A stretch of DNA of 64,000 bases from contig CM119271.1 in assembly GCA_051294375.1 (NCBI GenBank), positions 15,134,770 to 15,198,769 on the forward strand, written 5' to 3'. Position 1 is the first letter of the stretch. Each line of letters opens with the position of its first letter. The translations under genes and the position numbers were made by a program. Source of the DNA: Paraspadella gotoi (Eukaryota > Animalia > Chaetognatha). The notes beneath the pieces are model-generated. The model was not told where the DNA came from. It was given only the letters and a program-made list of their open reading frames with translations, and ran no database searches. Below, piece after piece: positions 6,138 through 63,320 of this stretch.

Positions 6138-6260
6138 TACCCGTTGTCATAAATAAACGCTTATTTCCCACGTCGTCCCTGCATCTCGCATTTTAACACA
6201 ACCACTCTCAACTCCTTCGGTTACACTCCAATCCCCCCCCCTTAACCCTCCCCTTAAAAG

Positions 6261-8330: not shown

Positions 8331-8711
8331 TTTTGTGAAATAGATGGGAGGAGAATTGATTTTGGAGGAGGAGGGGGAGAAATTGATTTTGGAGGTGGAT
8401 GGGGAGAAAGGGATAGAGAGATATTAGAGAAAGGAAAAAAGAGCTGGTTGATTATATGTTATAACTAAGACGATATTGTTGTCATTTGAACTTAGTAAAA
8501 GAAAAAACTGTGCGTCTTTGCGAAGAATCCGATGACTGGATTTTGTTTATTCCCGTTTGTTTACCTTTTTGTTTTCGCCCTGTTCGCGGATTACAATCAA
8601 ATAACACTTGTTGTTTTAATGATTTCGTTCAATTGATTATTCATCCCTTGCTTATTGATGTTTCATGAGATATTAGATTTAATCGGGACTCGAAATGAGA
8701 TAATGATGATA

Positions 8712-21224: not shown

Positions 21225-23252
21225 AACCAAGCGAAACTGGTCAAGGCGCGCGCGGAGGAGGCGCTGTCGACGGCGCGGAGCCGCGTGCAGCAGGCGACGT
21301 CGCGCCACGAGGCAGAAGTCGCCTCTAACCGCTCCCTCGCCGCCAAACTAGCCGCCGTCGACGAGGCGATTGAGCGCGGGCGAGAGGAAGGGTATCGGGC
21401 GCGGGAGAGGCGCGCCGCGGAGCGCCGGGATCTGCTGCAGGAGATGAAGTCCTTCGTCCGCGGAGAGGAGCAAGCGGAGGAGGAGATTCGCGTTTCCCGG
21501 GAGGAGATCGAGAGAAGAGGATTCGCCGTCGTGGACGAGGAGTTGCGGAAGTTGAAGGAGGAGATGGAGAAAGATGAGCCTCAGGTTGGTCGAGTTGAGA
21601 ATTGGAGATAATTAAATTATCACGCATAAAACGGGGTAAAACCGAAAAGGAATAGTTTAGGAGCCGACGTCGTTCTTAGAGATCGAAGAAGATATTTTCA
21701 ATGGAGATTTTCGTTCAAATCCGACTACCAAACAATATAAACGTTCCTGGGAAAAATTCCGGTAAAAAATCGATGTAAAAACACAGTGTTTAACACTTGA
21801 TTCCGATCCTGTTGTATCTGAAGGGCTCGCATTTTTTTTCTCTTGTCATTAACATCTTGATATCAAACAAGCCAGAACAAATAGACTGCTTCTGGACGGA
21901 AAAATTTTCTGTCTCTGATTTTATATAGAAACGAAAGGGATTTTTTTACTTGAAAACGATATAAACGTGACTATTGACTAAGGTGTGTTCCTGTTCAACA
22001 AATTACGTCCAATTTTCGGTTCCGAAGATTTTGGTTAATAATTTTTATATTTATGGTCGGATTTTTTAGAAACTTAATATTAACAATATTGCCATCATTC
22101 TACCTTGGCCGGTATAAGAATATATTAAAAAACCTCTGGCTTTGTTCTTCAGAGCTTAGTCCTAAATAGTTTTAACGTTTACCATGTTGGAATTCGCGAT
22201 TTATCTTTTCTTCGTTTTATTAATTTTTCCTGAACAAATTTTTCGTCAAGAGGATGAAAAGACCTTTCAACTGGTTACTGAAATTCATGGATATGTCTCA
22301 CGGTATGGCCCGCACGAAATTAAATCTTGAAAATCCTTAAGAAAGAATTTAACTGTTTTTACTTTTCTTTTTGGTTTATGTCTTTTTATCATAAATTTTA
22401 GATTCTCCCAATGTTCTGATGACTCTGGTTTGACGGCGGCAACTATACCTTATCAGGATGTTTGCTGTGAAAAAGTTTTTGACAAATTTTTTGATCTGCA
22501 AAGAGTGAAAACTCTGCCGAAAGTCTCTCTTCTCTCTCTCTCTGATTTTCACCCTACTCATCTGCTTCATCCTCCTAGGACTAAGCTCTGTCGAAAAAAG
22601 CCAGAGGTTTTTTTAATATATTCTTTTACCGGCCAATGTAAAATGTTATTGTTAAGTTTCAAAAAAATATAGAAAATAAAAAATCGGAAAATCCACCCCT
22701 TTGGAAGAATTTTGCCATAGAAAATTATTTTTCTTAAACTGTATTCGCTTCGTTTTCTTTGAACGATGACTCGCTTTATACTAATATCGCGGGGCCATCG
22801 TACAGACGGAAGAATTTGGAGAACGCCGAGATGGAACCGGATATTACGTTAGCCGGCTCAGCCATTACGATTTGCGATTGGGTTGAGATTAGTGGGCGAT
22901 AGCTCTTTGAATCCCCGACGCTGGCATTCCTTAATCGAGAAGTCAAAACGCCTGAAACTTAGTATTTGTTGTGAAAAACTAATACTATTTGTAATAGTCC
23001 GAATTCGACATTTTATTCTATAAAAAAAAACACTTGGCCCTTCCCCTCTCCCAGACCAACGCCGGCGACGCCGAGTTCGGGCCAACCGACGCGAAGAACG
23101 CCGCGGAGGCGCTGGAATGCGGCGCAGCGGTGGCGGTGGCTGCGTCGGAGCTGTCGAAGACGTTGAAGGAGGAAGAGAAGAAGAGAGAAGCGGCGATGGA
23201 GGAATTGAAGGAATTGAGGAAGAAGAGGAGGGGAGTGGGGATGGAGAATTGA
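21225..23252 (+). CDS. Coiled-coil protein, 3' exons (~21225-21584, 23055-23252), copy 2
   Basis: RAEEALSTARSRVQQATSRHEAEVASNRSLAAKLAAVDEAIE...MEKDEPQ|TNAGDAEF...EELKELRKKRRGVGMEN*; phase-0 splice is consistent. No family recognised. Confidence 0.7.
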
Positions 23253-23420
23253 TTTTGTGAAATAGATGGGAGGAGAATTGATTTTGGGAGGTGGAGGGGA
23301 TGGGAGAATTGATTTGGGAGGTGAGGGGATGGAGAATTGATTTTTGGGAGGTGGAGGGGATTAGAAATTGATTTGGGCAGTGGAGGGGGGAGAATTGATT
23401 TTGGAAGGTGGATGGGGGAG
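23236..23420 (+). repeat. ~28 bp minisatellite that includes the coiled-coil stop codon
   Basis: Units of ggggatggagaattgattttgggaggtgga; more units here than in copy 1 (8316-8405). Confidence 0.8.
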
Positions 23421-23732
23421 AAAGGGGATAGAGAGATATTAGAGAAAGGAAAAATAAGCTGATTGATTAATATGTTATAACTAAGACGATATTGTTGTCA
23501 TTTGAACTTAGTAAAAGAAAAACTGTGCGTCTTTGCGAAGAATCCGATTGACTGGATTTTGTTTATTCCCGTTTTGTTTACCTTTTTTGTTTTCGCCCTG
23601 TTTCGCGGATGACAATCAAATAACACTTTGTTGTTTTATGATTTCGTTAAATTGATTATTCATCCCTTGCTTATTGATGTTTCATGAGATATTAGAATTT
23701 AATCGGGACTCGAAATGAAGATAATGATGATA

Positions 23733-28913: not shown

Positions 28914-31900
28914 ATGGAATCCCGAAGCCACTTCTTCGTTTTCGGTCAGTAGCTTTGACCACTCGGTCAACTTGAGATTTATTTTGTAATTGAGCCTTTC
29001 GTTCGTTGCGATTGTAAATTCGAAAAGAAAACGTTTATTAAAAAAAGCTATTTTTTGAACAGGCAATCTTTCTTACGAGATAATAATGTAGCATAGTAAG
29101 ATCCTGCAAGCTGCAAGAATCTCACTGTCAAGATTATTATCTCTTTATAATATCTTAGACTAGTTTTTATAGTGTCTGTTTCTCCCGGTTCCATCATTTT
29201 CCAGTGCTGCTGTTCTGCTGCTGCTGTCACTTGTCTCGCGCTAAAATCGTAAGCGCGGATGTGAGATGCTTCGCGGATTCCAGTAAAGTCATGTGGTTCA
29301 GCGTCTTGCTTCAGGACGGCGGCGATATCACCAGTGCCGATACGGTGAGCGAATGTAGCCGGAAAGAAAAGAAAAAGAGAGAGTGAGAGAAAAAGGAGAA
29401 AGAGATAGAGGAGAGAAAGATAGACCGACAAATAGAAAGAGAGTGAAAGAATTATTAACAAAGAGTGAGACAAGTAAAGAGTGACCGACAGAAAAAGAGT
29501 TGGTAAGAAAAAGAGAGAGAAATAGAGCGCGAGCCCTATACAGAAAGAGAGAGAGAACGCGCAAAAGCGGCTCCAAAAAAAAAAGAAAAAAAGATTGACT
29601 CTGTATTGGCGATAGCAGATACGAGCAATGAAAGCGACGTCAGTCTGCACGACGGCACCGACCGTGACATACTTCAAAACTGGCGACCTTTCGGGTGAAG
29701 CGAGGTTCACAAACGCACCGACGGGAACGACGGCGACGGCGACGACTCACGACTTCACGCGGATTCAAATCAATCTCAAGATCTGTTCGCAGCACGTTAG
29801 TTCTTTCTTGTTGTTGTTACTTGTTAGGTTTATTGTAGTTGTTGCTAAATGTCAAAAATCCTTCCTAAATCTATCACAAATCCTTCCAAAATTATTCCAT
29901 ATCCTTATCAATTTTTTTTCAGTCTATCCTAAATTCTCTCTAAAAACTTCCATATATTTTCCAAATCCTTATGAAATTGGTACAACCAATATAAAAATTA
30001 TCCATTCATTTAATAAATAAGCTATCTTGCCCCTGACTTTGGACAGGCTTTGGTGGTTTATTATCCAAACTTCCAAAATTCTTTAATGTATTTCCCAAAT
30101 CCTCCGATGTCTATCACAAATCCTTTTAAATCCTTCCAGTTCCTTTCCAAATCCTTCTAAATCTATCCTCAAATCCTCACCAAAAAATTAAAATCCTTCC
30201 CACGATTCCTCCGCCAGACTTTGCAAGACGTCGTTGCAACTACAGAGGAGGTAGCGAAAAAGAAACACATTTTCGACTCGAGTTTAGAAATTCTCGCCTC
30301 TAACCTCTTTGTGACCAACACTTACAATCTCAAGTAAGAAAAGCCATTATGCATGGCAACGGTGAGACATGTGTGTTGCCTGGGTTGTGAACCATCTCCC
30401 GAAATCTGGCGCTCAGGGCTTTGGACCTAAAGTCACCACCTCGTGTCACTGGCGTGCTTATACCGGCACTATCACACTTAACCGATGTGATCGTGAGGGG
30501 ATTAAACCCCGAACTCACGGTTGGTAAGCAGAACTTAGCTGTCCAAGCTCATGGACAAGCTGTGTTTCACCAAGCTATACGGGAGATGAATTTAGGTTTC
30601 CCCAAATATTATCATTTGTCTCCATTTGCGCAATTGGCAAACGGGGGGGGGCGGTTATCGCCGATGATATTCTGCAAAGTTTTTGTCGGCTTATTATTAA
30701 TTTATCATTTTTTTTTGTTTTGTTAACTTTTTATTCGTATCTTGTTAAGACTAAGTTGTAAACCTACTATTTTTGTTATTATCTGAATTCCATGTTGTAC
30801 ATACCGTAATGTTTTAATTATTTATTGCAAAGGAATGAAATATATAATATGATATATATAATGTAAACTTATAAAATATATATAAACTTATAAATTGCCC
30901 AACCCCCCCCCCGTCTTTTAGATGCTCGTATTTAGAAACGACAGACGACACTTCGCTCACCATCTCAGCCAACATCGGTGCGCCACTCAAAGACGAAGAC
31001 AATAAATACTCAGTTGATATAGAGTAAGTTCAGTCTTAATCTAATTTATAGACTTAGTCGGCTAATGTTTATATGAAATTAGCAAAAAAAATAAAAATTA
31101 AAGATTAACTATTTATTTACTAGTAAATAAGCTGACATTTGTAGGTTTTGCAAGATGCTAACATAGCATGACACCGCAAGCTTTCAATCAAGACTCTCTC
31201 ACAGTCAATTTTTTTTATTAAATTGGTACAACCAATATAAAATTATCCATTCATTTAATAAATAAGCTATCTTGCCCCTTTGGACAGGCTTTGGTGGCTT
31301 ACAAGATAATATATTTCACTAATTGTTTCTCCCTACAGATTCTACAAAGTGGATCCGGCTTCGTCAAGCAAAACTCTAATTACCAAGGACTCCGGCGGAC
31401 TTTACCAGATGAATCTTGGCGACGAGACTGAAGTAAAGGCGAAGATCTTGGGGGATGTCTCTGTCGAGACGGCCATCGCCTCCATCAAGGTACTCTGGTC
31501 TGGTAGCTTAAAATCCACTAACCTTTCACGGGGGTCATTGGTAAAGGAGGCAAGTTATTCGCTTCCCAACCCAAAGGTCCGAAGATCTAGCCCGCTGGCC
31601 GACTTGCAGTTAATAGCGTCGTGGCGCTTAACCCGCCTGTAACATGGTTTTACAGCCTGATCCGATCTCTCTTCAATACATAGAAATCAATCGACGTGTG
31701 AATTCTTTTTAAAACTCGTGTGTAATTAAGCATTGCTTAATAAGCATTGCTTAATAAGCCATACTAAATAAAATTTTAAAGCAAATGATGCATTAAACCT
31801 TAAAAGATCTGCAAAGAAGCGGCCTGCACTACGACGGCCGATGTGGTCGAACTAATTTCGCCATACGGAGGCAACGGAAACCAAATTGCCGCCAATCAAC

Positions 31901-34900: not shown

Positions 34901-37900
34901 TTTCTCTCTTTTCTCCTGCTGCTTCTGCTGCTGGCTTTTGATTTCTTTTTTTTTGGGTGCCGCTGCTTGATTCGTCCGAAAAAGGATTAGGCTTCGCATT
35001 TGTGCATGTTATCATTTTGCTATTCGCAACATCGGGATTTTGTTTCGATCTTTCTCTCGTCACTCTCTCTTTATTTTTATTTTTATTTTTTTCCTTATCT
35101 ATTCTTTCTTTCCTAATATTCTTTCTTTGTTTCTTATTTTTTCTTTCCTTTCTAATCTTCTTCCTTTCTTAATCTTTCTTCCTTTCTATCTTTCTTTCCT
35201 TTCTATTCTTTCTTTCTTTTCTATTCTTTCTTTTCTTTCTATTCTTTTTTCCTTTCTATTCTTTCTTTCCTTCCTTCTATTTCTTTCTTCCTTTTTCTTC
35301 TTCCTTTTTATTCTTTCTTTTCCTTTCTATCTCTTTCGTTTCCTTTCTATCTTTCTTCCATTTCTATTCTTCTTTTCCTTTCTAATCTTTCTTTCCTTTT
35401 CTATCTTTCCTTTCCTTTCTATTCCTTCTTTTTTTTATTAATTCCTTTTTTTATCCTTCTTTCCTTTTTATTCTTCTTTCCTTTCTATTCTTTTTTCCTT
35501 TCTATTCTTGTGTTTAATTCTATTTCTTCTTCCTTTCCTTTCTATTCTTTCTTTCTATCTTTCTTTCCTTTCTATTCTTTTTTCCTATCTATTTTTCTTT
35601 CCTATTTTTTCCTTTCTATTCTCTCTTCCTTTCTATTTTGTCTTTCCTTTTCTATTTTTTCTTTCTTTTCTATCTTTTTTTTCCTTTCTATTTCTTTTTT
35701 TCCTTTCTATTCTTTTTTTCCTTTCTATTCTTTTTTCCCTTTCTATTCTTCTTTCCTCTATTCTTTCTTTCCTTTCTATTCTTTCTTTCCTTTCTTTTCT
35801 TTCATTTCCTTCTTTCTCTTCTCTTCTTTCTTCCTTTCTTTTCTTTCTTTTCTTTCTATTCTTTCTTATATTTATTCTTTTCAAGACCAAACCAGCCCGA
35901 GCGCGTGTCTCGTGTCTCGTCATCCACGCATTCACCCTCCCTTCTTCCTCCTCCGTAGCACCCAGGGCTCGAGGCTCACCCAGTTTCACTTCCTTCTCGT
36001 TTCTTACTCTCTCTCTTACTTTCTCCTCTCCGCTTCCTTCCGATTTCCCCTCCCGTTTTTGTACACTTTTTTTTGCCTCTTTAGTAGTACCATACACGTT
36101 TTTCCCACATTTTTGCCTTCTTCTTTTGCTTCGTTTGGACCTTTACCCCCATGTTTAGAGTTGGCCCCAGGGGCGAACCCACGACCCATTACCCCCATCC
36201 CAGATAGAGTGGCGCCCAATGTGGGGCTCGAACCCACGACCCCAGATTACCCCCATCCCAGATAGAGTTTTCTTCTTTTTCTTTGTTTATAAATTAATTT
36301 TCTTTTTTCAAATTTGATTTTTTTTTTAGTATAAAATTTGTCGTCAATCCAGATTTTTCTCATGCAATTGCGACGATCCTTATGCTTTTAAGATTTTTAT
36401 TACTATGTTCTCGTTTTTAAAAAAATATTGAATGACAATAGATATAAAATTTGTATATATTTTTTTATTTATTGTATTTTTGTTTATTATTTCCTTCCAT
36501 TCCTTCATTTTGTCCCCGTCTTCCTTTCCAATTAATATTGTTATATATATATTATATATATATAACTTCAATTATGGAAAGTCAAGTTTGTGAAATATTT
36601 ACTGCACCCAAAAAAATTATAAAAGAATAGTGAACAATTTTTTAATTTCATTTTCGTGTTCCGAAATTACCCCTGTTCCTAATTACCACGCACGACCCTA
36701 CAATTTAAAAATTTCAGTGAATAAATTTTGGTACAAGTAACTTCCCCCCCACTATGGCACTCATTGATAATTTCCTTACCTTATAAAACTAATCTTTCTC
36801 GTCATTCCCCTTTGAACAGCCGCTTCAAAATCACAGCTCCCTCCGCCGCTGCGAGCGAAGCCGTCTTCACCTTCCCCGTCTTTCGTTATTCAAAATCCTC
36901 CAACAACGCGCAGGTCAGTCGATGAGCTTCTCAGTCGATGAGCTTCTCATTCGATGAGCTTCTCAGTGGGCCCAACACTTCTATCATTATCTTCTGGAGG
37001 GGGGGGGGTCCTGGGCTTGCAACAAGGCTTGAGCCTTGAGGGTTTTCCGGCCTCCAAGGCAGTTTACGGTCGTCCTCGCGGTTCCGGTACCTAATGATCA
37101 TGAGCTGATGGTATAACTCAATGAGCCACCGCGTCACGACTGAAGATGTCACGCTGGTAGGCAGAGTGTACTTGTTGCAATGCCCGACCACAGATCTTCT
37201 TCGTCTTCAAAATCTCCATCTGCAAAGGAGGCGAGTCAAGTTCCAATTGCCGGAAAACTTGCATTTCGGCGTCGGGCAGACGACGCAGGTCTGCTGGAGA
37301 GGATGGCGACGTCCAAACTCTGACCAAAGTCGTCAAGATGAACGTAGGTTTTAATTGAGAGAGAGAAAAAGAAAGAAAGAAAGAAAGAAAGAAAAAGAAA
37401 ATTAAATAAATAATTTTCATCTTCAATGTCCCTCGTCCAGTCACTTTTCAAATTCATGAAATTGGTACAACCAATATTATATAATATTAATGTTAAAAAG
37501 AGTAATAGGAATTCCCCCCGCCCCCCAACTCTTTCAAAGGTGGTCTCTAATCCCGGAGACTGCTCCGACTCTCGCCTCAACGTCGTCGCCAACTGCACCG
37601 ACGGCGCCCGCGTCGGCTCCGTTTGTCGGTACGCGTGTCGGCCGGGATTCGCCGCCCTCTCGGGTCCGACGGAGAGAAGATGCTTGGAGAAGATCGTCGA
37701 TCACGTTGGGCCCATCTATTACGGGACCAAGGCGGAGTGGACGGTCGACGGCACGCCCAAATGCGAGGGTGAGGCTTAAAAATTGAAAGGGAGATTCTTT
37801 TGTTTGTAGTTAGTTCTCCTCTTCGAGGAGAGGTGGCGTATTCGATTGTGACTGATTGAGATTGATCAAACAAAATATTTTTATAGTTCGATGTATATTT

Positions 37901-47534: not shown

Positions 47535-47801
47535 AATTCAGTGTGGAGTACAATCCTTTTATACAATTAAAATATTCTTTGAAATATTATATCACTTCAT
47601 TGATAGGGAAGCCAGGTACTCTGGGAGAGAATAAACGAGACTGTGAGAGAGTCTTGATTGAAAGCTTGTAGGGACCTGCTATGTCATTATCTTGTGAGAG
47701 TGATGGAGGCCTTAAACCACCAAAACCTGTCCAAAGTCACGGGCAAGATAGCTTATTTGTTAAATGAATTGATAATTTTATATTGGTTGTACGAATTTCA
47801 T
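47535..47801 (-). mobile_element. Repeat family A
   Basis: Reverse complement of the family A consensus. Confidence 0.75.
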
Positions 47802-48299: not shown

Positions 48300-49791
48300 C
48301 TGTCGACTTTTTCCCCAGACTAATTCTTCCTCTTTAATTTTAACCAATATTTTTCATAGACTTTCGATTAAATAAAATAAAAAAAGGGTAAAAATTTTCG
48401 TCTCTAACTAATTTCATTAAATTTTATTTTCTTTCTTTTTCCTTAGGCCAATTTAATCATTTTCTCTACGTAACGAAATAAATTCCGGCGCTATTTTCCA
48501 AAAGCGCCACATTTCTGTTCCTTAATTTTAATCGTAGATTTATCTTAATCTCTTTCCAAAACTATAACTTAATCCTTTACTCAAATCACTAACCCTAATC
48601 TCTAACTTAATCTTTAAATCTAAAAAAAATAATTTAATTTCGGAATTAAAGCTGTAACGGCACGCTTTCGGCAAATATTCCCAAATATTCTCTTTATTGC
48701 CACTCGAACGTTATTTGTCCAATTTTATTTCGTTTAAATCGCCGATCGATGCCATTCGTCATAATTCGATGCCATTCGTCATAATTCGATGCCATTAGTT
48801 ATTCGCGCCATTTTTCCTAATGGCAAAACTTGGTCATCGATGGCACAATTGACGATTTTATCGCCTTCCGTTTTCAATTTGTGGCATTTCCGCAACTCGG
48901 CCCTTCTTTGCCATTTATTGTGATTATTGGCAACTGGCATAATTGATTATTTCGGGCTGCGTTTCAAATTCGTCTTTTTTATGTCCATTTCGTTTTTGAA
49001 TATTTTTTTTTATCGAAAGACACGAATTATTTTATATTTTATTAGATTTATATCTTTTGACTAAACATTTTTATTTCTAAACAAATTCCCACCNNNNNNN
49101 NNNCCGAATCGTCGTAAAATTTCCCCGACAACAACAACAACGACAATTTTTTCCTCGTTATAACCGAGTTTTTGTTTTCGTTGGAGAGAGAATCTCGTTC
49201 CTTCCGATAAAACTCCCGACGCTTCGATGACTCATCGGGGTTACGGGTTTTACGAGCGGCTTATACGCCGCCGCCGCCGCCGCCGCCGCCGCCGTCGCCA
49301 ACCACTTTCACCTTCTCCTCCTCCTCCTCCTCCTCCTCCTCCTCCTCCTCCTCGTTTCGCTCCAATTTTCCCGACTCTAGATTCTCCGTCTTTTTTCTGC
49401 CAACTTCATCCTTTGTTTTTCACGCTTCGTTCGCTCCCCTTGGCATTCTTGCGCATTCTGGCTTTAATGTTCTAGCAGATTTCGTCCCAAGTCTTGTCAT
49501 TCTACTCTATATTTACTCTCGTTTATGTTCTAACTAATTCTATCTGAATTCTACATTTTGCATTCTCTCGCAAATCCATAATTTCATTTTCAATCTTGGT
49601 ACATCTCTCTCTCTGCCTCTCTCTCTCTTCTTCTCTTCTTCTCTCTCTCTCTCCTCTCTCTTCTCTTCTCTCTCTCTCTCTCAATCATTCTCCCCTCTCT
49701 CCAATCGCTTTACCCTCCCCCCCATCCCCTTCCTCCCCCTTACCTTTCCAGTCCCGCCATAATTCATGGCAACATAAAACAAAGCTGCACG

Positions 49792-52700
49792 ATGGCGCTG
49801 GTAGCGGTGGGCGGCGCGGCTCTGCCGGGCGCCGTCGCGGTGCCGGGCTGCTCCCAAGGCGGCGCCGCAGCGGGGCCAGCCTATTACCACCGTGACATCA
49901 CACGCCTTCGGGCGGAGGAGCTTCTCTTTCACGCGCGAAAGGACGGAGCCTTTCTCGTCCGAGACAGCGAGAGCGTTAAGGGAGCCTTTGCACTCTGCCT
50001 GCTCTTTCGGGGATGCGTCTATCAGTACAGGATATTGGCCGGGCCGGACGAGTGCTTGGCTGTGCAGGTTGGTAGGAGGGACGAGTGCTTGGCTGTGCAT
50101 TATGTGCAAGTGCGTAGGAAACAGAAGTGCTTGTCAGTGCAGCTGCGCAGTTGAGCCAAGTGCTTGGTGATGTAAATATTTGTGGGCGTTTTCGTGAAGC
50201 CCTTAAAAACTGTTTGAATGTCAAGCCAAGGTCTTCTACAGTCTCGAGTGCAAAGTCTACATGACAATTATATCCCAAACTTGGCCCTCTATCCCAAACC
50301 GAGGCGGATCGCGGCGTCGTAGGCAAAAAGTACAAAACCCTCGTCGATCTCATCAACGACTATAACGACGACAACAACGGCCTCGTTTGCCCTTTGCGTC
50401 ATCCCGTCGCCATGGAAACGAACAACGACGACGAGGACGACGACGACGACGACGACGAGAACGAAAACGAAGGTGAAAGTTCACTGAAACGAAAAAAAAG
50501 AAAAAATTTTTATGTTCAAATTCAGAATTAAATTAGTTTTTAGGTTTAGGGATTAGGTTTAAAGATTAGGTTTAAGGATTAGGTTTAAGGATTAGGTTTA
50601 GGGATTAGGTTTAAAGATTAGGTTTAAGGATTAGCTTGGGGACCTCTAAAAGTTAAGCTTATGGATTAGGATTTATGGTTAAGATTTCTGTTAAAGATTA
50701 GTTTACTAGGGATTAGTTTATAAATTCAATAAAAAATTATAGTTAAATATTAAGAAACGGAAATGCGGCGCTTTTGAAAAATGATAATATTATTTCTTTT
50801 TATTGATGCATCCATTGTTATTTATTAACTTTAAATCTTAACCAGGCGTCGACGAAACTCTCAGTCCTCTCATCAATGGACACGTCCGACCAAGAGAACT
50901 GACCCTCGGTGGCGTTAACAACAACAACAACCCAAACGCCAACGTCATCGTCGTCAATGGCAACAATAACAACAACGCGTTTCCGGCCAACGGCGTCAGG
51001 AGCGGGGACGCTGGCGGCGGCGGCGGCGTTGCGGACCGGTTGCAGCGGAGGTAAGAGTTTAAAACATTATGCCACTTTATACCCAGGTACTCAGGAATTC
51101 TGGGAGTGAATAAACTAGACTGAGATAGTCTTAATTGAAAGCTTGCAGGAGACCTTGCTATGTCATTATCTTGTAAGAGTGATGGAGGCCTTAACTAACC
51201 AGTCCATGGGGCAAGATAGATTTATATTGGTTGTACCAATTTCATATGAAACTAAGACAGATAGTAATCTAACCTTGTGTTGTATCGATGCTCCCTCTAT
51301 TTCCAGAAGACAACACCTACTTCCCCTTCCCAAATTGAATTATTAGATAAATAAAACATTTTTAAAAAAGAAAGCAATATATATTTGTTTAAATAATATA
51401 GATTAAATACTAAGTCTTTCATAAAATATAAAAATAGAAAATAGTGAAACAAGTAATTTGCAAATTTTTATATATGTTCTAAAAATGCTTCTTGTATTCC
51501 ATGTATAATCGGAATTAATTTAATATTAAATAACTTATATTCTCATAATATAATAGATAGACATATTAGACATAATGACAGATTGATCAAAAAAGTGACC
51601 TTTAAAAAAGTGACCTTTAAAGTTTCTAGGCGAGTAATCGCCGCGCATCTAAAAACAGAAAATATAAGGGAGGTCAGTGGAAAATAAAAGAGAGGTCAGT
51701 GGAAAATAAAAGAGAGGTCAGTGGACAATAAAAGAGAGGTCGGTGGAAAATAAAAAAGAGGTCAGTGGAAATAAAAGAGAGGTCGGTGGAAAATAAAAGA
51801 GAGGTCAGTGGAAAATAAGAGTCAGTAGAAAATAAAAGAGAGGTCAGTGGAAAATAAAAGATAGGTCAGTGGAAAATAAAAGAGGTCAGTGAAATATAAA
51901 AGGTAGGTCAGTGGAAAATCCAAGAAATCAAAACAGCGACAATAACAACAGTATCAACATTAATAACATTAACAACAACAACAACAACAATAAAAAAACA
52001 ACAATAACTAATCAACAACAGGAACAACAATAACAGAATCAACAGTAATAAAAACTGGAACAACGACAACAATAACAATATCAACAACAAGAACAAAAGG
52101 ACATAATCCCTAAGAAGCCCTTCCCTCTCTTCTCAGACTGAGTTGCCTGAACACCAACGACGTCGACAACGCCTTCGTCCAACTCCTCGTCTCTTACGTC
52201 GAGGAAGGAGCTCGACGAGACGCCGTCCAGCTGCAGAGTCAGGTCGCCGCGTCGGCGGCTGCGGCCTCGGTGCAGCCTCATTACTTGAATCAACTGGTGC
52301 TGGAATCGGCGGCGGAGTTGTCCACGCAACTCGACGCTTTTCTTAGGTTTTGCTTTTTCGTTTCCTCTCGTTGTAGTTTTTATCAGCTTAACTTTACTAA
52401 ATTAATTAAAAACCAATTAATCAACCTATCAATCAAAAATAATAAATGAATCATTCAATTGATAAATAATTTAATGAATGAAGTAATCAGTCCCTTAATC
52501 GATCAATCGATGAATGCATAAATAAATTAATCATTTAATTAATTATTAAATCAATCAATCAATCAATTAAATCAATCTCCCTTCAGAAAAATCTCCGTTC
52601 TCCACCGCCTCTTCTCTCGCGACGACGACGACGATGACAACGACGACGACCCCTCCTCCTCCTCCTCCCCACGCGACGCCAATGACGACGATCTCGCTGC

Positions 52701-55700
52701 TCTGCAGGACCGACTCTCCCGCTGCCGCTCTGCCGTGTCCTCCATGCGTAAGAAGGCGGCCCTGTCCTTGAAGGACTCTTCCTCGGCCGGCGACGCGCTC
52801 GACTCCGACCCTCGCTTCCTCGATTCGGCGCACCCGTCGTCCCAACGGCTCGTCGACGGACTCCCTTCGCCCGACGTTCGACCGCTTCAACCGGACGACT
52901 TTGCCCGACGCGCCTCTCGCTCTTCGGCGGGCATGAAGTGCGTCCCCATGCTCCCGTCGCCGACGAATCGGAGGCCGAATATTCCTCTCTCCAACTTTCT
53001 CGTCAAGCAAGAGTCGACGGGACCTTTGAGTGTCTTGTCGCTGAGGGAGACGAGGCTCACGTTGACGGTGGATATTCAGGTTTGTGGGATAAGGGTTTGT
53101 TTAATGGCGATTGAAATCGTAAATGTCAAGAATTTAAAGTTTTCTGTAAACTGTTTCAGCAGGACCACAATGTTTAAACAGAAATATCTGATAAAGTCGA
53201 GTAAACACTAATAATGGAGTACTCAACGCCTTTGAAATTGTATGTTTTTTTGGTTTTAAGTTAATCAAAAACAATTACAAAATTAATTCACTTATTGGTC
53301 ACACAAGTACAACCCAGTGGTTCCAAGTACAACCATTACAAACTTTATCCAATATCCATTCATTTATTGAGTGAGTTCTCTTGCCTTCTGGATTCTCACT
53401 TTAGACTAGACGATCCTTTCCCTTCCCACCATTTTTCCCGCCATTTCCATTCGCCTCAGGGCGGGAAACTCTTCGCCGTGAAAAACGACACCCACGTCTT
53501 GGACGACTCCAACACTTTCGTCCACGAGAAAATCCTTCAACTCATCAAATCTGTGGACAACAATTCCAAATTGGGACTCGTCGTTGAAGGAAGAAAGAGA
53601 GACGACGTTCTCTTTGAGAATTCTCAAGCGAGGGAGAACTTTTGCCAGTTGGTGAGATGGCAGAGATGAGAATGGGGGGGGGGTTCGCCAGTTGGTGAGA
53701 TGGCAGAGATGAGAATGGGGGTTTACCTTTTCAAATTTTCGATAATAAAAAATAATTAGCCTTTGTTGTTGTCTTCCGTGAGCCGAAAACTGGAATAACC
53801 AATCGAAAAAGCTATGGAACAATTACTATTTTCTATGTGTAAATTGACAAAAATAATCTCTTTCAGGTTCAACAACTGAAAAACCTCCATACTCGCGGCA
53901 CAGAACCCGATCAAATCTCCATCTTCGTCGGATCTTGGAACATGAGCGGCGTCGTCCCTCCTCATCATTTCTACTCATGGTTCAGATCGAAAGGAATGGG
54001 AAAGACGAGGGACGCTATGTTGCACGCGATTCCTCATGATATTTACGTGATCGGCACGCAGGAATCCTCCATGCAGGTTAGTGTGTGTGACCTACTGTTA
54101 AAGATACCTTGGTGATCACAAGAGAACTCCTGGTTAAGAGTTTACTAGTTAAGTGTTTACTACCTACTACAATTTTAAAAAATCATACAAAAAAAAAAAG
54201 ACTAAGAAACGGTGGAATATTATAATGAGCGACATTAAAGAGTAAAAAAATACTATTTTTGCTGGGTTTTTTTTTTTATAAGGGGGTGATGAACCTCAAG
54301 GGCCTATACGAGCGAGCCATAGTCAATTGAAAAAGCAGATAGGGAGAGAAATGTTGGACATAAACTCTCGACGTAATCAGGAAGACTAATGAAAAAAAAA
54401 AAGAATGTTCGCTTCCAAACAACTGGCCAGATGATCTATCCATCTATCCATCCTACCTTTTTCCCTAACCTCCCATCCCAGGAAAAAGAATGGGTAGAGA
54501 AATTGAAATCGACTTTGAAGAAACTTTTCTTTATCGAATTTCTTCACATCGCGACTGAATCTTCTTGGGGTCTGAGACTCGTTGTGTTGGCCAAACCCGA
54601 ACACGCCCTCAGGATCACTCACTTAGAACAGGTGGGGCCAAATTGACTCGGAAAATTTGTCTGAGCTTTAACTTTCCAACCGTTTCGACTATTGTTGTCT
54701 CCTGCTCCATAAATCAATGTGGTTGGCGATAAGAAATCGATTATGATTGAAAGATGACCCAGATAACGAACATACATTATGGAAAAAGTTGATCAATTTG
54801 GAAATACCAATATTTAGTTTCAAATAGGCGACCAAACGTAGTCCCTAAAACAATCGGTGTAAATAAAAAAAAAAATCTTAAATCCTTAAATCCGAAATGC
54901 AAATAATCCCCTTTTCCTTAAATCTCCGATGCCCAAAATCCCCTATTCTCCAATCTCAAATCCCCACAATCCCCAATCCACTCTCACCAAAAGTCAACCG
55001 TCAAAACGGGTCTCGCCAACGCTTTGGGCAACAAAGGCGCGGTGGGCGTGTCCTTCCTCTTCAACGGAACCTCGTTCTGCTTCATCAACTGCCACCTGGC
55101 GTCGGGGGCCGAAAAATGCGACAGGCGAAACCAAAACTTTCGCGACATTTTGCGCGGATTGAATTTGGGTCAAGCGAAGGCGCCTTTCGATCTCGTACAC
55201 TCCTTTCATCACATCTTTTGGCTGGGTCAGTTTTTTTTTTTGGTTTTTGTTGAAAATTGACAATCATCTCTAATGCCATTGAGGAATTACTATGATGTTG
55301 GTGTACGCTGATGTTCGCGTTATGAGGTTTCGGGGTAAATTTGGCTTTATTAACCTGACCTTGGATGTGTCTTATGCAAAGAATTTTCTTTTAATGGATT
55401 TATTCTTTTATTTTTATTTTAAACAAGAAATGATTGACTGGTTCTTAGTTACAAGCTTGAAATTGAATCTACTCTGATTATTTGTTTGAGCGAATTTTAA
55501 AAAAATACGAATAAAATCCAAAGCAAAACTAATGTGTAGACTGTACAGTTTTTCACAAATTTGGACGAGTAAAAAATTTTGCTAATGTAATTACTACTTT
55601 TTTAAACCCTCCAACTTTTTGCTCTAGGCTGCCTCAACTACATGGTGGACTGCGAGCCCAAAGCGGTCATCCAAGCCATCAAGACCCGCCAATTCCCTTG

Positions 55701-58700
55701 GATCCTCCAACGCGACCAACTGGGCATCATGCAACGCCACGGTCTCGCCTTTGCCGGCTTCAAGGAAGAGAGCGTCAATTTCCCGCCGACTTATCGATTT
55801 CAAAAGGGCAACCGGTCTGTGTACGAATGGCAACGGACAAAGAAGACGGGATTGTCCATCTATGTCCCATCGTGGTGCGATCGGGTAAGGAAAGATTCCT
55901 TTCTCGCTTTCCCTCTTTGAAAACTTTTCTCATGTTAATTTGATATCTTGCTCGATTGAAAACTTGGTTCAACCAATATAAAATTCATTCATTCATTCCA
56001 TAGATATTAAACAATAAAAAATAATATAATAAAAAGAAACAAATAATATTAACAATAAACACAAAGCCTGTCCAAAGTCAGGGGCAGGGTAGCTTATTTA
56101 TTAAATGAATGGATAATTTTTATATTGGTTGTACCAGTTTCATAAGACAAAGAACAATCTATTTTCTGTTAAAACACCTCAACAACATCTGTCATGTCAG
56201 GAGCGCATCTTTTTTAATTGTAACAATTTTTTATTAGTTTGTATGTTTATATTTAGTTTTGTCTAAGTATTACTAAAATCAATACCATCGAATTCCTTTC
56301 CCATAGGTGCTGTGGAGATCCTTTCCCGACACCCACGTGGTCAACACATCCTACGGTTGTCCAATCGATCTGACCTGCAGCACTCACTCGCCCGTCTTCT
56401 CTTCATTTGACGTCGGGATTTTCTCACAGTTTTCGGGGAAGGGCGGAGCGCAGGTGGGCGGGGAGTCGACAATAATGATGATGATGTTGAGGAATGAAAG
56501 TAGATAGAACATCTCAATTTGCCAATGATGATTCTTATATTGAATATCTTTAATTAATTGTAAAGTAATTCACAATCAAATGACGTGTGCCACTAAATCA
56601 AGACTGTTCCCACTTACCCCCCCCCGGCCCTGTCTCCAGGCACGCAACGAAGGCGCCTCCATCGTTTTCGATACGATGGAAGCAGAAGTCCGCACAATGT
56701 CGAAGCTTCGCTTCTATCTCGAGTTTCATTCTGTTTGCCTCGAGTATTCTGTCAAGTCTAAGGCCAACAAGCAGTACGACACGTGGAAGGAAGGACCGTA
56801 CTGCTGTCCGCTCTGGACCACGCATCAGTTGCCGACGTTAATTCCCATCATCGCCGACAGGTGGACGGGGGGGGGAGAATGATACGGCGGGAAAAGTGGG
56901 AGGTTAAATAAAATTATATATTAATGAAATATATCGGATACCCGGATTCGCACACTATGCAGTAGAGTGGAGTGATTTAAATATTGAGTGATTGAACAGT
57001 ATTTTTTTGCTGCTTATGGACATATAATTAATGAATTTTAAATCATTTTAAAATTTTTTTTAGCAACAGTATAATAAATTCAATTATTTATGTAGTAATA
57101 TCCTTATAAAATCGTTAAACTTCAAAATATTTTTTCTATTTTTAAAAACAGATTTGGATTCATTGTAAAAAACTAAGAAAGTTTTATAAAATGTTATATG
57201 ATATTTTAAAGTTTTAAGTTTTCTATGTTTATAAATTCTAAATACAGTATTAAATCACAGACGAAGCATTAAATTTTTTAAAAAATTAATTTGATGCTAC
57301 TTAAAATAAAATTGACACCCTGTAAAAAAGAAAAAAGAAAAAGAAATGACGCAATAAAATAAACGCGTACAGCATTGAAAGGACGTACTAAAAGTGATAT
57401 TGACTCAAAGAAATGATGAAAACACACTTCACTGAAAAAGATGTAATGAATTATAAGTTATAAAATGACGCATACGAACTTAAAGGAAAATTGACTAACG
57501 TAAAAATACATAAATAATTAAAAATTTACAATCAAACCCCGGAAGAAAATGAAACGTTCAAACTAATATAATTTTTTCTAATATTTTCCACAAATACTTT
57601 GATAAACGTCCCACGTTTTGATGTCTTCTAACCCCGCAATATGCAAATTAGAATAAACTAATTCTAATAATGTAAGAAATGAAACCCTCCGCTCCTTTCC
57701 ACCCCCCCCCAAATAAAGAGACTACCTCGAAGACCAACACCTCCTCGTCGCGGTCAAAGGGATCGACGAGGAAGAGTCCTACGGCGAATGCTGCATCTCC
57801 CTCAAGAATCTCTTCGTCGACGAGCCGGCCTTTTTCCAAGCGGCTCTGCAGCACCGGGGAGAGGAGACGGGGCGCCTCTGCGGAAAGCTGCACGTGCGGT
57901 TGGAGGAGGACGCCGCGACGGACGCAGCCCGGCCGGCGAGACGGCGACCCGCTCGAACCTACGAACTCATATCGTTGGAGAGAGAGGCGAGGGGAATGCA
58001 GCACCAGCAGCAGACGTCGATGCAACAGCAACAGTATCAGCAGCGCGACGCCGATTTTCCTCTCGTCAACTATACTCACTCTCCTCACAGAAACGGACAC
58101 GAGGGTAAGTTCTGGTGCGGCGCCGGCGGCGGTTCGGACACTTACCGGCTGCCCTACGACCCTTCCCGCCGCAGTCGCCGGTCGCCGCGCCGAGATTCCT
58201 CTTTTCGACCGGAAAATACGGAAACGCTGCTTCTGGAAACGCGGAAACCGGCGCCGGACGAAGACGACGGCGTCGGATGCGCGACGCCGGATTGTCTCGA
58301 CTGCGCCGTGCAGCAGAGTCTCAACTTTCGGGGCGTCGAAGACTTTTACGGAACCACATGGACGGACGACGGACGACGAGAGACGCGGACCGGCGCAGCG
58401 GCGCTGGCTCCACCCATCGCCGCAGCCGCCGCTGCGTCTCCGCAGATATACTGCCAGCCGCCGCCATCGACTCCGCCGCCGCCGCCGCCCGTCGCTTCCC
58501 ACGCCTTTCCTTCTTGCGCGCCGCCGCTACGAACGAAGAGCGTCCCGCCGACGCCGGCGGCGCCGCCACCGATACCCGAGGACGCCGCGGCGTCTTTGAT
58601 GATGATGATGGCGTCGGCGGTACCTCCGAGGAGATTCATCCCTCCTTCGGCGTCATCGTCGGGATGGACGCCGTCCCCGGGCGGCGTCAAAAACGCGGCG

Positions 58701-59558
58701 TCGAAAATAGAGGGAACGACGAACGACGACAGAGACAGAGACAAATCCCCTCTTCCTTCCTCCTCTTCCTCTTCCTCCTCCACGAGCAGCGGTTCCATCG
58801 AAGTCACCTCCGGCGTCGGACTCGCTCTCGATTCTATTCTCGATCAGTTGGCGGAATTCGGGGAAGGTGGCGCCGGAGACTTTAATGGCGGCGCCGTCGG
58901 TGGCGGCGTCAATGGCGCTATCGGAGCCGGCGTCAATGGCGCCCTATTTCAACTCGGTTCCATCCCCGAATCGTTTCAATCGTCATCTCCTTCGCTTCCG
59001 GTCAAATCGGAAAGCGACACCGCCATCGGAACTACGCCGGGGATCGGCGTAGTCGATAGCGGCGGCGATATTTCTCCCTCATTCGCCGCCAACGCCAAAG
59101 ATGGCAAAAACTACGACCGCCTCTTTCGTCGCTGCACGGCGGAGAAGCGATTTGTCGTCGCTCAACCGGCGTCGGTTTCTTCCTCGTCCTCGGCGTCGCA
59201 AATGTCGCCGGCGTCGAAATTCGGCGTCAGTCTTGGCGGCGTCGCCGGCGTTCTTTCCCCTACCGACTCGACGACGTCCGCCGGCGCCTCGCCCGAGTCT
59301 CCCGGCGTCATTTCTCCCTCGAACGGCGCCGTCAAAGTCAACGTGGACTACGCCAAACTCTCGCGGCCGAAGAGCGTCGCCGAGTGGCTGCGACTCCTCG
59401 GCTTGGGACGACATGCTGCGGCCTTCAGGAACAACGGATGGGATCAGCTGGAGTTTCTCTCCGCGTTGGCGGCGGGAGATTTAGATGAAATGAATATAGT
59501 TGGGAAAGAGGAGCAGGCAAGGATTCTGGAGTCGATTAAGGAAATGGGAAAAGGGTAG
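49792..59558 (+). CDS. INPPL1: SHIP2/INPPL1-like protein (SH2, PH-related, 5-phosphatase, C2, Pro-rich, SAM). Exons 49792-50067, 50304-50472, 50846-51050, 52137-52346, 52587-53079, 53460-53651, 53867-54076, 54482-54631, 54994-55225, 55628-55884, 56307-56453, 56640-56860, 57719-59558
   Basis: SH2 YYHRDITRLRAEELL...GAFLVRDSES; EPDQISIFVGSWNM; PHDIYVIGTQE; LGNKGAVGVSFLFNGTSFCFINCHL; FPPTYRF; PSWCDRVLW; C2 QLPTLIPIIADRDYLEDQHLL...ESYGEC; SAM EWLRLLGL...NGWDQLEFLS. All introns are GT-AG and phase-consistent. One-to-one orthology with INPPL1 versus INPP5D is not tested. Confidence 0.93.
50540..50635. repeat. 12 bp telomere-like tandem repeat
   Basis: (gattaggtttaRR)n in SHIP intron 2. Confidence 0.8.
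51068..51245 (-). mobile_element. Repeat family A fragment in SHIP intron 3
   Basis: gaaagcttgcagg...gttgtaccaatttcat. Confidence 0.7.
51668..51920. repeat. 22 bp minisatellite in SHIP intron 3
   Basis: (gaggtcagtggaaaataaaaga)n, about 12 units. Confidence 0.9.
56964..57300 (-). mobile_element. Partial copy of the same hAT MITE in SHIP intron 12
   Basis: tagagtggagtgatttaaatattgagtgattgaaca...ggacatataattaatgaatttt matches the reverse complement of ~20600-20908. Confidence 0.7.
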
Positions 59559-60312
59559 CAAGGGAGAGTGGAGTCGAATTTGGGAGGAGAGGGTAGCAGA
59601 GGATAGGGAAAGGATAGGAGCAGGGATACAAGAGTTGATCCAAGGATTCCTTAAAGACCCTGCTTCTCATTTGGATTAGATTCCTTTATTAAATTATGAA
59701 TTCTGTTTGGATCCATGAAATTCATTCGTAGTATTATGTATTAAGATTCGTTCAAAGTATTTATACATTCCTTGGCGACGGTTTATTAATTTGAAAATCG
59801 TTGTTTCATGTTTTTTGGTCATTTTGGAACAGTGCCTCTTTTTTTTGACATCGTCGTCGTCGTCAAAACGGCGTTTTTTAAAACGACATTTTTTTTCTAT
59901 TTGGCGATATTTATTGATTAAATTTATTTATTTATTAAATTAAATTTTTTAGTGTTAATTCGTTTTCGCCTCAAACGAAAAATAGAAAACTTTCTTGTTC
60001 CTCATATTAATACGTTTACAAATATTTTGAAAGAAAGTATTAAATTTATCTGCCAATCGGTCGTTTATTCACGAATTAAAACGACTATATTTCCGAAATT
60101 AATGTTTTTAGGGATTTAGAAATTAACATGTCAATTTAACTTGTCATTACCGTCATTACTAATACAAGTCCATGTGATATTCAACAACGGATGTTGCTTT
60201 TTTTAAGTTTAGGAATTTTAAAAAACGGAGTCAAAAAGTTACCCTTTTTTAAACTAAGCTAGACAGAAACTGACACGTTTTGAATGTGAAGAATGTGATT
60301 GACACATATTAC

Positions 60313-60451
60313 TTGATTGAAAGCTTGCAGGGACCTGCTATGTTATTATCTTTTAAGAGTGATGGAGGCTTTAAACCACCAAAGCCTGTCCAAAGTCAGG
60401 GGCGAGATAAATGAATGGATAATTATTTTTATACTGGTTGGACCAATTTCA
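60313..60451 (-). mobile_element. Repeat family A fragment
   Basis: ttgattgaaagcttgcagggacctgc...ccaatttcat. Confidence 0.7.
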
Positions 60452-60846: not shown

Positions 60847-62579
60847 TTATCTCCCTTCCCCTCTTCCTCCTCCTCTTCCTCCCTCTCTTCCTCCTCCCCT
60901 TCTCACCTCTCCTGATCGATCAACGGCCTCTTCTTCTCCCTCTTTGACGTCCTTCCTAATCTTGACGGCCTGAGCAGCGTTGATTCCCGACCCACCGAAG
61001 ACGACTGTGTCGTTGTCGGCGAATTGACCCGCGTACAGGAATTGACCTTTGCCCTCCGCGTGGTGGACCTTTATTGGGGAAACGAATTTTCTTTTCATTA
61101 ATAGTTAATTCATGTCATTTAAAACTTGGAATTAAATAAAAATTCTTTGTATAAAGATTAATTTTATTTTACACAATTTTAATTTTGAAATGTTTTAAAG
61201 ATTGAACATTAACTATAAATTACTTTTGGTCTAAAACCTAAGAGATAGTTACAATTTTTTTTTTTAAATCCTAAACATTAATTGTAACGAAAAATAAGAG
61301 AATTATGTTTTTTTTTAAACAACGAATTTATTTAACATGAACATGCTTCGGCTTCAATGTTAGCCTTCAGCCTTCAGGCTTCATCAGCGCAAAATGATCA
61401 AAGCTTACATTGAAGCCGAAAGCCCGAAACATGTCCATTTTCATATTAATTAAATTCGTTGTATAAAAAAACTTTTCTCCTTTAAATTCTTTCTTTCTTT
61501 CATTTCGTTGTGTTGGTAGCATTAAAGTTTAATGCTTCCAACACAACGAAATGAAAGAATGAAAACAGAGAATTATGTTGAAAAGCCTAAACACCCGAAA
61601 GAGCAACTACAAAGTCAGTCTCTCACCTTGACAGTTTCTATGCATCTTCCAGAAGAATAGTCCCACAATTGAAGCGCATTCGTTGAAATCCAAGAAGCTG
61701 AGGAGACATGAGGAATAACATTAAAAAAACTAAATCGAATGATGGAACTGTATGTAGCAGGATAGCTGAGGTTTCGTTTATTTTAATCTAATTTACATAT
61801 TGTAGCAAATTAGATTATTTTTTATATCCGTATATTAATTTTTTTTAAATATTTTCATGGCATCGGAAAAAAAACTAATCGTCAGTTACCACACTGCCTG
61901 CAACATTTCCGGAGAAATATCGGTTCTCCCGTAGTTACTATTATCTTCTTTCAAGAAATAATACTTACTATCTCTGATGTATTATCACATTTGTTATCTT
62001 CGGAGTTTTAATCAGAGCTTATTATAATTTATAGTAACATAACTTTTGGGAAAGTATTTCGCTCAATGTTAATCTACAACTTATTTTTTTTATCTCGCCA
62101 GACGGGCGAATGCCCGACTTGGGTGAGATGTTAATTCGTTTCTGCTTTTTTTGACCGTAGTCGTCGTCGTCGTCACGCTGTTTTAACATTGAAAATAGCT
62201 CAAGTGTGTAACAATAGGAAGCTAAAAATTTAGATATGGCTTCTCATCATTGAGGTCTTTTAAATTGTTATGTTTCATATTCCTACACTCATTTGTTTGT
62301 TTTATTTACAAAACAATTTTTATATATATAGACGAGTTCAGCTCTGCAGCGGTTATCCAGCGGCTGTTCAGTTTCTCTCTATTTCTCTCTCTTTTTCTCT
62401 ATTTTAATTACATGTCGCTCTCTCTCTTTTTCCATCACAGCTTCTTTTGATTCGTCTAAAAACGAGTTCGCTCTGCAGCGGCTGTCCAGCGGCTGTCCAG
62501 CGGCTGTCCAGCGGCTGTCCAGTGGCTGTCCAGCGGCTGTCCAGCGGCTGTCCAGCTTCTCTCTCTCTTTTTCTTTTTT

Positions 62580-62610
<31 letters not shown>

Positions 62611-63320
62611 CTCTCTCTGTCTCTCTCTTTCTTTCTCTCTCTGTCTCTCTCTCTCTTTCTCTATCTCTCTCACTCATACACGCATTTGTTTGTTTTTATT
62701 TACGATGAATGACTCATCGCGTCAATGATTGACTATCATCGCATCAATGAATGATTATCATCGGATAAATAAATGACTATTATTGCATCAATCTATGATT
62801 CTCATCTCTTCAATGAATGATTATCATCGCATTTTCAAAACGTATTTTGAACGAATTGCTGTCAAATCAACGTAATGCAAACTATCGCAGCTCCGGTAGA
62901 AACAAAAGAGCCAATCAATGCCGAGTTAATTTCAGTCTGAATCTCTTTTTTCAGAAAAAAATTATTTGAAGTTTTCATACACACATTTTCATGAATTAAT
63001 AAATAATTAATCGCCCATAGATCTGGTGATTACTGGTAAAAACTGCAATATGCAAATGAGATTATGAGACCGAAAATGTAGTTTTTTCAAATATTCTTTA
63101 AGGTTTTTCAAGGCTCGGTTTGAAGAGTGGAGTTAAGGTCGGACTTAGTGATTTAAGAGTGTTAAAGTGGTTAAAATTTGTTAAAATGAGTTAATTTGTC
63201 TAAATTTGGCGTGGTCTCACCCGTGAGGATTTTGAAGTCGCTTATGTCGAGACCGTCACCGCAGATGTGAGGTCCGCCAATCGTTCGCTTAACTCCGTCT
63301 CGCGATCGAGCGTCCCAAAC
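60847..63320 (-). CDS. WD40-repeat protein, 3' exons (63320-63221, 61697-61627, 61068-60907 or to stop 60847); 5' part lies outside the window
   Basis: VWDARSRDGVKRTIGGPHICGDGLDISDFKILT|ASWISTNALQLWDYSSGRCIETVK|VHHAEGKGQFLYAGQFADNDTVVFGGSG; WD motifs, GT-AG introns and consistent phases. Confidence 0.85.
61312..61562. mobile_element. Degenerate palindromic Penelope-like remnant with hammerhead fragments
   Basis: Inverted arms aacgaattta...cggcttcaatgt / acattgaagccg...taaattcgtt; CTGATGA on minus (~61387) and GAAACATGTC on plus (61426); adjacent ~32 bp-arm hairpin at 61495-61559. Confidence 0.5.
62475..62555. repeat. 11 bp tandem repeat inside a HINE-like element (~62085-62830)
   Basis: (cagcggctgtc)n; flanks share blocks with 34520-34990. 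Confidence 0.75.

Follow-up and report, generated by a model that had tools for sequence, protein, structure and literature searches.

A SHIP-family gene of Paraspadella gotoi with five active-site substitutions, a probable natural pseudophosphatase kept as an adaptor

The 64,000-nucleotide stretch of DNA analyzed here (the window; Paraspadella gotoi, GenBank assembly GCA_051294375.1, contig CM119271.1, positions 15,134,770 to 15,198,769 of the forward strand) contains a gene of the SHIP family whose inositol 5-phosphatase domain is altered at its active site. Is the encoded protein still an enzyme and, if not, what would keep its gene intact? A first-pass annotation, made from the sequence alone, had described a maintained and spliced SHIP that is likely dead, with its SH2 and SAM domains kept; it had placed TGC at 55630, ATG at 55642, and ACT at 56382, and the three codons are indeed found there. 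On balance, we take this to be a SHIP that is probably catalytically dead and kept as an adaptor by purifying selection, a reading supported by the gene model, a spliced contig, Pfam matches, residue conservation, and a neutral-decay test. In human SHIP2 numbering, the substitutions are D607C, R611M, R682S, N684Y, and D717T, all placed by alignment:

55630..55632, + strand: Cys (TGC) in place of the general base, SHIP2 D607; Asp codons are two base changes away
55642..55644, + strand: Met (ATG) at SHIP2 R611, equivalent to synaptojanin-1 R734, a 5-phosphate contact
55855..55857, + strand: Ser (TCC) at SHIP2 R682, a 3-phosphate contact; two base changes
55861..55863, + strand: Tyr (TAT) at SHIP2 N684, a 4-phosphate contact
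56382..56384, + strand: Thr (ACT) at SHIP2 D717, the Asp preceding the catalytic His; two base changes from Asp

The last of these positions is the Asp of the terminal Asp-His pair of the EEP superfamily. SHIP2 numbering was counted by hand from the alignments and agrees with PMC5550278 at D613, D615, R649, Y661, R665, H674, R682, N684, R691, and H718. In SHIP2, D607 is the catalytic base, and neither D607A nor N684A has determinable activity (PMC5550278, Table 3), in line with the first-pass description of D607A as phosphatase-dead; R682A loses most of its activity. The same source has R682 contacting the 3-phosphate and N684 the 4-phosphate, with R691 structural. Of the earlier statement that R682 and N684 both bind the 4-phosphate, the part on N684 therefore stands, whereas R682 belongs to the 3-phosphate. 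In synaptojanin-1, where the roles of D730, N732, and R734 have been described, the Asp equivalent to D607 holds the attacking water (Asp to water 3.1 Å, water to phosphorus 3.5 Å) and R734 touches the 5-phosphate (PMC7781601). Measured against an active 5-phosphatase, the protein lacks the general-base Asp, R611, the D717 of the D717/H718 pair, and both R682 and N684 of the 4-phosphate motif. It has the metal-site Asn and Glu, the first His, N609, and N540/K541, and it also keeps Y661, R691, and H718.

Homologs rarely vary at the substituted positions. Among 122 SHIP homologs, a vertebrate-heavy set of 120 listed out of 187 matches plus two further ones, Asp occupies D607 in 122/122 and D717 in 122/122; R611 is Arg in 121/122, R682 is Arg or Lys in 121/122, and N684 is Asn in 118/122 of the matches listed. 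Since D607 and D717 are invariant in these homologs, the substitutions are not attributable to chance. In a wider set of 297 proteins, which includes isoforms and other 5-phosphatases and of which 291 were aligned, D607 is Asp in 265 of the 269 proteins that cover it and D717 is Asp in 251 of 253. Cys was found at the D607 position in none of the 269, and none of the 291 lacks both Asp residues. Proteins without Asp at D607 were considered as parallels and rejected: P0137 and P0166 are poorly aligned locally and look like faulty gene models, P0141, from a bird, is an incomplete model into which an additional segment has come, and P0208, a Diplonema 5-phosphatase with Asn at this position, was set aside as no parallel. 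From its residues, which include Gly at N540 besides the Asn at the general base, P0208 is possibly an independent dead 5-phosphatase.

Searches with exon 10, which encodes four of the five substitutions, returned no close relative. Among longer proteins, there were 4 matches from 26 candidates, 40 to 49% identical (an empty result here is weak evidence), and among short proteins, there was no candidate. Among representatives clustered at 50%, none of the best 150 of 495 exceeded 58% identity, although close relatives can hide behind a representative, and a metagenome scan with this exon gave 0 loci. The corresponding scan with exon 9 gave at least 24 distant loci at 31 to 61% identity; the motif could be located by pattern in 13 of them, all with Asp. 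Two runs from other organisms (X10 and X11) gave nothing on the exons at 80% likeness, which proves no absence.

A trivial explanation would be an assembly error, a wrong splice model, a rare allele, or a recently dead gene in decay, and we regard it as barely credible. Eleven sequencing runs were listed, nine of which contain the stretch, under 3 study codes, and seven of the eleven were compared. The Cys reading depends on the intron at 55226-55627, and a 4550-base contig of run X9, which belongs to a different study, skips exactly those 402 bases; it skips three introns in all within 53850-56055, each at GT..AG, has 0 other letters in exons 7-10, leaves most intron bins uncovered, and fits exons 4-13 of the gene model at a constant offset. 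None of these exon joints occurs in DNA run X1. For the DNA runs X1, X3, X5, and X6, no difference is listed at the five codons (X3 cover of exon 10 is not among the listed pieces), and the same comparison does report differences elsewhere, for example, at 49760, 49762, and 49764 in four runs. The runs agree on these letters across 5 sample codes and 3 study codes, although X1 may be the assembly's own sample. An alternative exon supplying GDLNYR or SDH, which the first-pass annotation had named as a way out, was sought in all six frames of the window, and neither such an exon nor an intact catalytic motif was found. In favor of an artifact, the transcript is seen in one spliced contig of one run; X9 is taken as RNA by a guess and from that contig, no run being on record as RNA, and contigs show presence, not expression level. 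With a matching spliced contig and no DNA run that differs at the codons, an assembly or splicing error does not account for the substitutions; they are real, common to several sample codes, and present in a spliced product. The earlier judgment that sequencing error is unlikely is thereby upheld.

The gene comprises 13 coding exons at 49792-59558 on the + strand, with 1533 codons, GT-AG boundaries at all introns, and a single stop at the end, as expected from the earlier claim of 13 exons without a frameshift. Frame and homology were used to place the putative start codon and the acceptor of exon 2 (50304); Pfam was run on single exons (E, expectation value).

49792..59558, + strand: SHIP-family gene, 1533 residues; open frame, GT-AG introns, X9 spliced contig matching exons 4-13
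49792..50067, + strand: exon 1, start and most of SH2, both phosphotyrosine-pocket Arg kept; Pfam SH2 E 3e-14, alignment, second X9 contig at 49751-50065
50304..50472, + strand: exon 2, SH2 end and acidic stretch; frame, with the acceptor inferred from frame and homology
50846..51050, + strand: exon 3, low-complexity linker; gene model
52137..52346, + strand: exon 4, helical region common to invertebrate SHIPs; X9 contig, gene model
52587..53079, + strand: exon 5; X9 contig, gene model
53460..53651, + strand: exon 6, first C2 / PH-related domain; Pfam C2_SHIP1-2_first E 4.5e-4 (under the cut-off, exon alone), tblastn
53867..54076, + strand: exon 7, where the 5-phosphatase domain begins, with both metal ligands, Asn (53939) and Glu (54062), retained; X9 contig, alignment
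54482..54631, + strand: exon 8, 5-phosphatase domain; gene model, X9 contig
54994..55225, + strand: exon 9, N540/K541 (55030-55035) and first active-site His (55093) kept; X9 contig, alignment
55226..55627, + strand: 402-base GT-AG intron splitting the Gly that precedes the catalytic position; the X9 contig skips it, DNA run X1 does not
55628..55884, + strand: exon 10, four of the five substitutions, N609, Y661, and R691 kept; X9 contig, alignment
56307..56453, + strand: exon 11, last part of the 5-phosphatase domain, with H718 (56385) kept; alignment
56640..56860, + strand: exon 12, first half of the second C2; Pfam C2_SHIP1-2_2nd E 2.6e-9
57719..59558, + strand: exon 13, remainder of the C2, long Pro/Ser-rich tail, SAM (about 59370-59555), and stop; Pfam C2 E 2.7e-20, SAM E 9e-10
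59343..59360, + strand: putative V-x-Y-x-x-L motif resembling an immunoreceptor tyrosine-based inhibitory motif, immediately 5' of the SAM; alignment

The X9 contig over 49751-50065 extends 153 letters upstream, so an earlier exon exists; the frame 5' of the ATG at 49792 is open within exon 1, and the start may therefore sit further upstream. Single-run coding variants were seen in X6 at 56671-56672 (Asp to Ala in the second C2) and at 58650 (Ala to Thr in the tail), and a silent change at 57776 is present in X5 and X6. In one X3 contig, GATC is inserted after 54612, where exon 8 has a GATC site; the insertion is not in X5, X6, X9, or X1 and looks like a library restriction-ligation junction, not a frameshift allele.

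The encoded domains are, in order, SH2, C2-like, 5-phosphatase, C2, and SAM. The phosphatase matches the Pfam EEP phosphatase family (E 1.9e-14), and a search with the four phosphatase exons gave SHIP2 and then SHIP1 as the best PDB matches, far over other 5-phosphatases. With an SH2 domain that has its phosphotyrosine-pocket Arg, the C2 domains that flank the phosphatase in SHIPs, and a SAM of the SHIP2 type, the protein is a SHIP by descent and by domains; the Pfam matches, together with the two SH2 pocket Arg in the alignment, bear out the earlier statement that SH2, C2, and SAM are retained. SHIP2/INPPL1 and SHIP1/INPP5D (PDB 3nr8, 5okm, 5oko, and 6dlg) and the invertebrate SHIPs of Branchiostoma, Lineus, Owenia, and Nematostella have the same domain order, including the Pro-rich tail, and the phosphatase domain is 51 to 57% identical to those of 9 SHIPs. 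It differs from them in the replacement of D607, R611, R682, N684, and D717, in longer low-complexity linkers, and in having no NPxY motif. A Tyr-x-x-hydrophobic motif occupies the pre-SAM place in several other invertebrate SHIPs as well.

Outside the active site, the protein looks like any other SHIP. Its mean identity to 12 SHIPs, compared with their own mean, is 0.48 versus 0.46 for SH2, 0.43 versus 0.40 for the first C2, 0.43 versus 0.41 for the second C2, and 0.33 versus 0.33 for SAM, and that of the phosphatase is slightly lower (0.53 versus 0.56). We also compared 39 representatives of less than 75% identity, drawn from 157 full-length cores among 289 proteins: 4/13 conserved active-site positions are changed versus 4/66 other conserved positions (Fisher p 0.022), so that 62/66 of the latter are kept, and two of their four changes are conservative (L to I and K to R). 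By alignment, the SH2, both C2 domains, SAM, and phosphatase framework are shown to be normally conserved. Neutral decay of the whole gene, in a rough, after-the-fact Jukes-Cantor test that scores both double changes and the few framework changes in an open frame, comes out at a joint chance no higher than 4e-7 for all 8 divergences tried. Changes at the active site with the framework kept, and the poor fit of neutral decay, point to a loss that is local to the active site and probably old. The open frame of 1533 codons, the kept framework, and the neutral-decay test also agree with the first-pass opinion that pseudogene decay is unlikely and, with the exact GT..AG joints, artifact or recent decay is largely refuted. 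Two features of a pseudophosphatase are found together, namely, lost catalytic residues in an intact, expressed gene with a constrained framework, where expression means one contig of one run.

How might such a protein act? Without D607, no water would be activated to attack the 5-phosphate, and without R611, R682, and N684, phosphatidylinositol 3,4,5-trisphosphate (PI(3,4,5)P3) would not be positioned, hence no PI(3,4)P2 would be made. The SH2 domain would recruit the protein to phosphotyrosine sites, and the C2 domains and the folded dead domain would hold it at the membrane. The Pro-rich tail, the pre-SAM Tyr motif, and the SAM would gather partners, much as in the catalysis-independent roles of SHIP1, for which adaptor functions of this kind are described (PMC11311582). 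The kept Asn, Glu, two His, N609, Y661, and N540/K541 may hold the fold or bind phosphate weakly and non-selectively; having lost a 3-, a 4-, and one 5-phosphate contact, the pocket would show little selectivity for PI(3,4,5)P3. Of the two roles proposed by the first-pass annotation, the scaffold is favored in the form of an adaptor, whereas the phosphoinositide sensor is weakened, because the 3- and 4-phosphate contacts (R682 and N684) and R611 are gone.

Several points weigh against a maintained adaptor. The active-site list behind the conservation test was taken from papers but fixed after the substitutions had been seen, and under stricter cut-offs the comparison becomes 2/10 versus 1/41 and 2/8 versus 1/25, with p values of 0.094 and 0.139 that are not significant. 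The NPxY motifs that SHIP1 uses as an adaptor are not present (0 in 1533 residues, as also in 11/12 reference SHIPs scanned). The dead state is known from one species, no close relative having been found in our searches. EEPD1, another EEP-fold protein, has a broken catalytic motif and is reported in one 2026 paper to have no nuclease activity (PMC12988330) and in another to be active (PMC13153614), a conflict that makes motif loss no proof of inactivity. Finally, 9/14 of the active-site positions scored are unchanged, which exceeds what a site given up long ago would need, and these nine residues are the fact that the adaptor reading accounts for least well.

The nine kept residues, among them both metal ligands and both His, are also what recommends a repurposed pocket, in which the Cys, together with the two His and the Asn retained around it, would bind a soft metal or another phosphorylated ligand, or serve as a redox switch or in another reaction. 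Each of the two Asp replacements, as counted in the first-pass annotation, and also the one at R682 takes two base changes, possibly a mark of selection, and another new Cys is found two residues N-terminal to the D717 position. However, the Asp acts through an intervening water, and from that geometry (PMC7781601) the shorter Cys would be poorly placed for direct attack, so that altered chemistry through the Cys, as first suggested, is improbable; no Cys occupies the position among the 269 covering homologs, and R691, a structural residue in PMC5550278, may like others have been retained for structural reasons. We consider repurposing unlikely. A 5-phosphatase activity that is low or shifted, the lost base being replaced by a neighboring residue or by the substrate, would draw on the same metal ligands and two His, on N609 and Y661, and on the activity reported for EEPD1 despite its broken motif; we hold it to be very improbable.

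A further alternative is that the protein is the inactive partner or competitor of an unseen active SHIP paralog in the same genome, as MTMR13 is with MTMR2. This phosphoinositide 3-phosphatase precedent (PMC6716428) and the ability of SHIP1 to oligomerize (PMC11311582) speak for it. Against it, exons 7-10 at 80% likeness retrieve two X9 records, this transcript and one on intron stretches only, and X1 has no variant exon, which speaks against a recent duplicate only, since an old one would be missed. We judge such a partnership to be quite unlikely.

The protein is nested among animal SHIPs, and in an all-domain tree it branches as the sister of the lophotrochozoan SHIPs, not within them (Shimodaira-Hasegawa-like approximate likelihood ratio support 99 and 96). 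A second all-domain tree of 17 rows gives 96/98 with the lophotrochozoan rows, and 100/99, in a tree whose deep nodes are not resolved, whose outgroup is not monophyletic, and which has no non-SHIP 5-phosphatase as outgroup. The protein has no counterpart of a two-residue SH2 insertion that is present in the five lophotrochozoan rows with names and in one unnamed row. Trees of the phosphatase-C2 part only are unstable, with the protein on the deuterostome side in one and on the protostome side in the other. No arthropod or nematode occurs among the named SHIP proteins listed (partial lists, with many proteins unnamed), and the ortholog table of PMC6716428 gives no SHIP for Drosophila and Caenorhabditis elegans. 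On these trees, the tentative placement fits an ecdysozoan or other early protostome branch. That this is the animal's only SHIP, on a protostome branch that is not lophotrochozoan and lies close to the SHIP-less fly and nematode lineages, where the enzyme was lost before the gene, is a doubtful extension.

Among known systems, the protein resembles the engineered SHIP2 D607A mutant, with the differences that it occurs in nature and has four further changes. MTMR5 is a natural inactive myotubularin. MTMR13/SBF2 is likewise a natural inactive phosphoinositide phosphatase with a non-catalytic role (PMC6716428); myotubularins differ in having another fold, in being Cys-based 3-phosphatases, and in acting with an active paralog. 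EEPD1 shares the EEP fold, a broken Asp-x-Asn with other motifs kept, and a proposed role in binding, not cutting (PMC12988330); it differs in losing the Asn where the Asp is lost here, in its nucleic-acid ligand, and in its disputed inactivity (PMC13153614). A natural catalytically dead SHIP or inositol 5-phosphatase was not found in the literature searched, which covered few subscription journals and no supplements, and the pseudophosphatases listed in PMC3827238 are of the protein tyrosine phosphatase kind only; PMC5770160 brings no further information on the point.

SHIP1 and SHIP2 are drug targets, and so far only engineered mutants have separated their enzyme role from their adaptor role. 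If our reading is true, a natural, maintained SHIP without its base shows that selection can act through the adaptor role alone and marks the surfaces relevant to it, and the inositol 5-phosphatases join the families with natural pseudoenzymes. Should the lineage be close to the ones without SHIP, it offers a path by which SHIP could have been lost there, and should the gene be the sole SHIP, the adaptor role alone holds a five-domain protein, including a folded dead phosphatase, under selection. This applies to one species, and pseudoenzymes as such are common.

An amphibian SHIP2-like third paralog (P0099, P0144, and P0162) is comparable in that these are SHIPs with eroded Y661, N684, R611, and K541; it differs in belonging to a separate vertebrate branch and in keeping D607, D717, and H718, which are present in the three full amphibian models. 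Across this branch, which also includes P0166, various members have Y661C, N684S, R611C or K, and K541R, and by its residues it may be a SHIP whose specificity is shifted or whose activity is low.

Elsewhere in the window, exons of a neighboring gene lie at 60850-63320 on the - strand, tail to tail with the SHIP gene; they are WD40-repeat-like, with a weak match to WDR5 (E 0.017), and the ESM Atlas gave nothing over 0.83 for a neighboring exon, none of it clear. Upstream, an exon with a Sushi/CCP domain (Pfam E 8e-5) at 37414-37776 on the + strand is part of another gene. Copies of a short dispersed repeat are found at 51090-51250, 56062-56144, 47600-47800, and 60310-60450, and for the two copies inside the stretch compared between runs, the summed depth is very high in every run. 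The window also contains similar open frames twice, at 6157-6534, 8062-8458, 21225-21611, and 22858-23497 and at 14315-14850 and 29048-30020, and this pairing suggests local duplicated segments or a repeated element.

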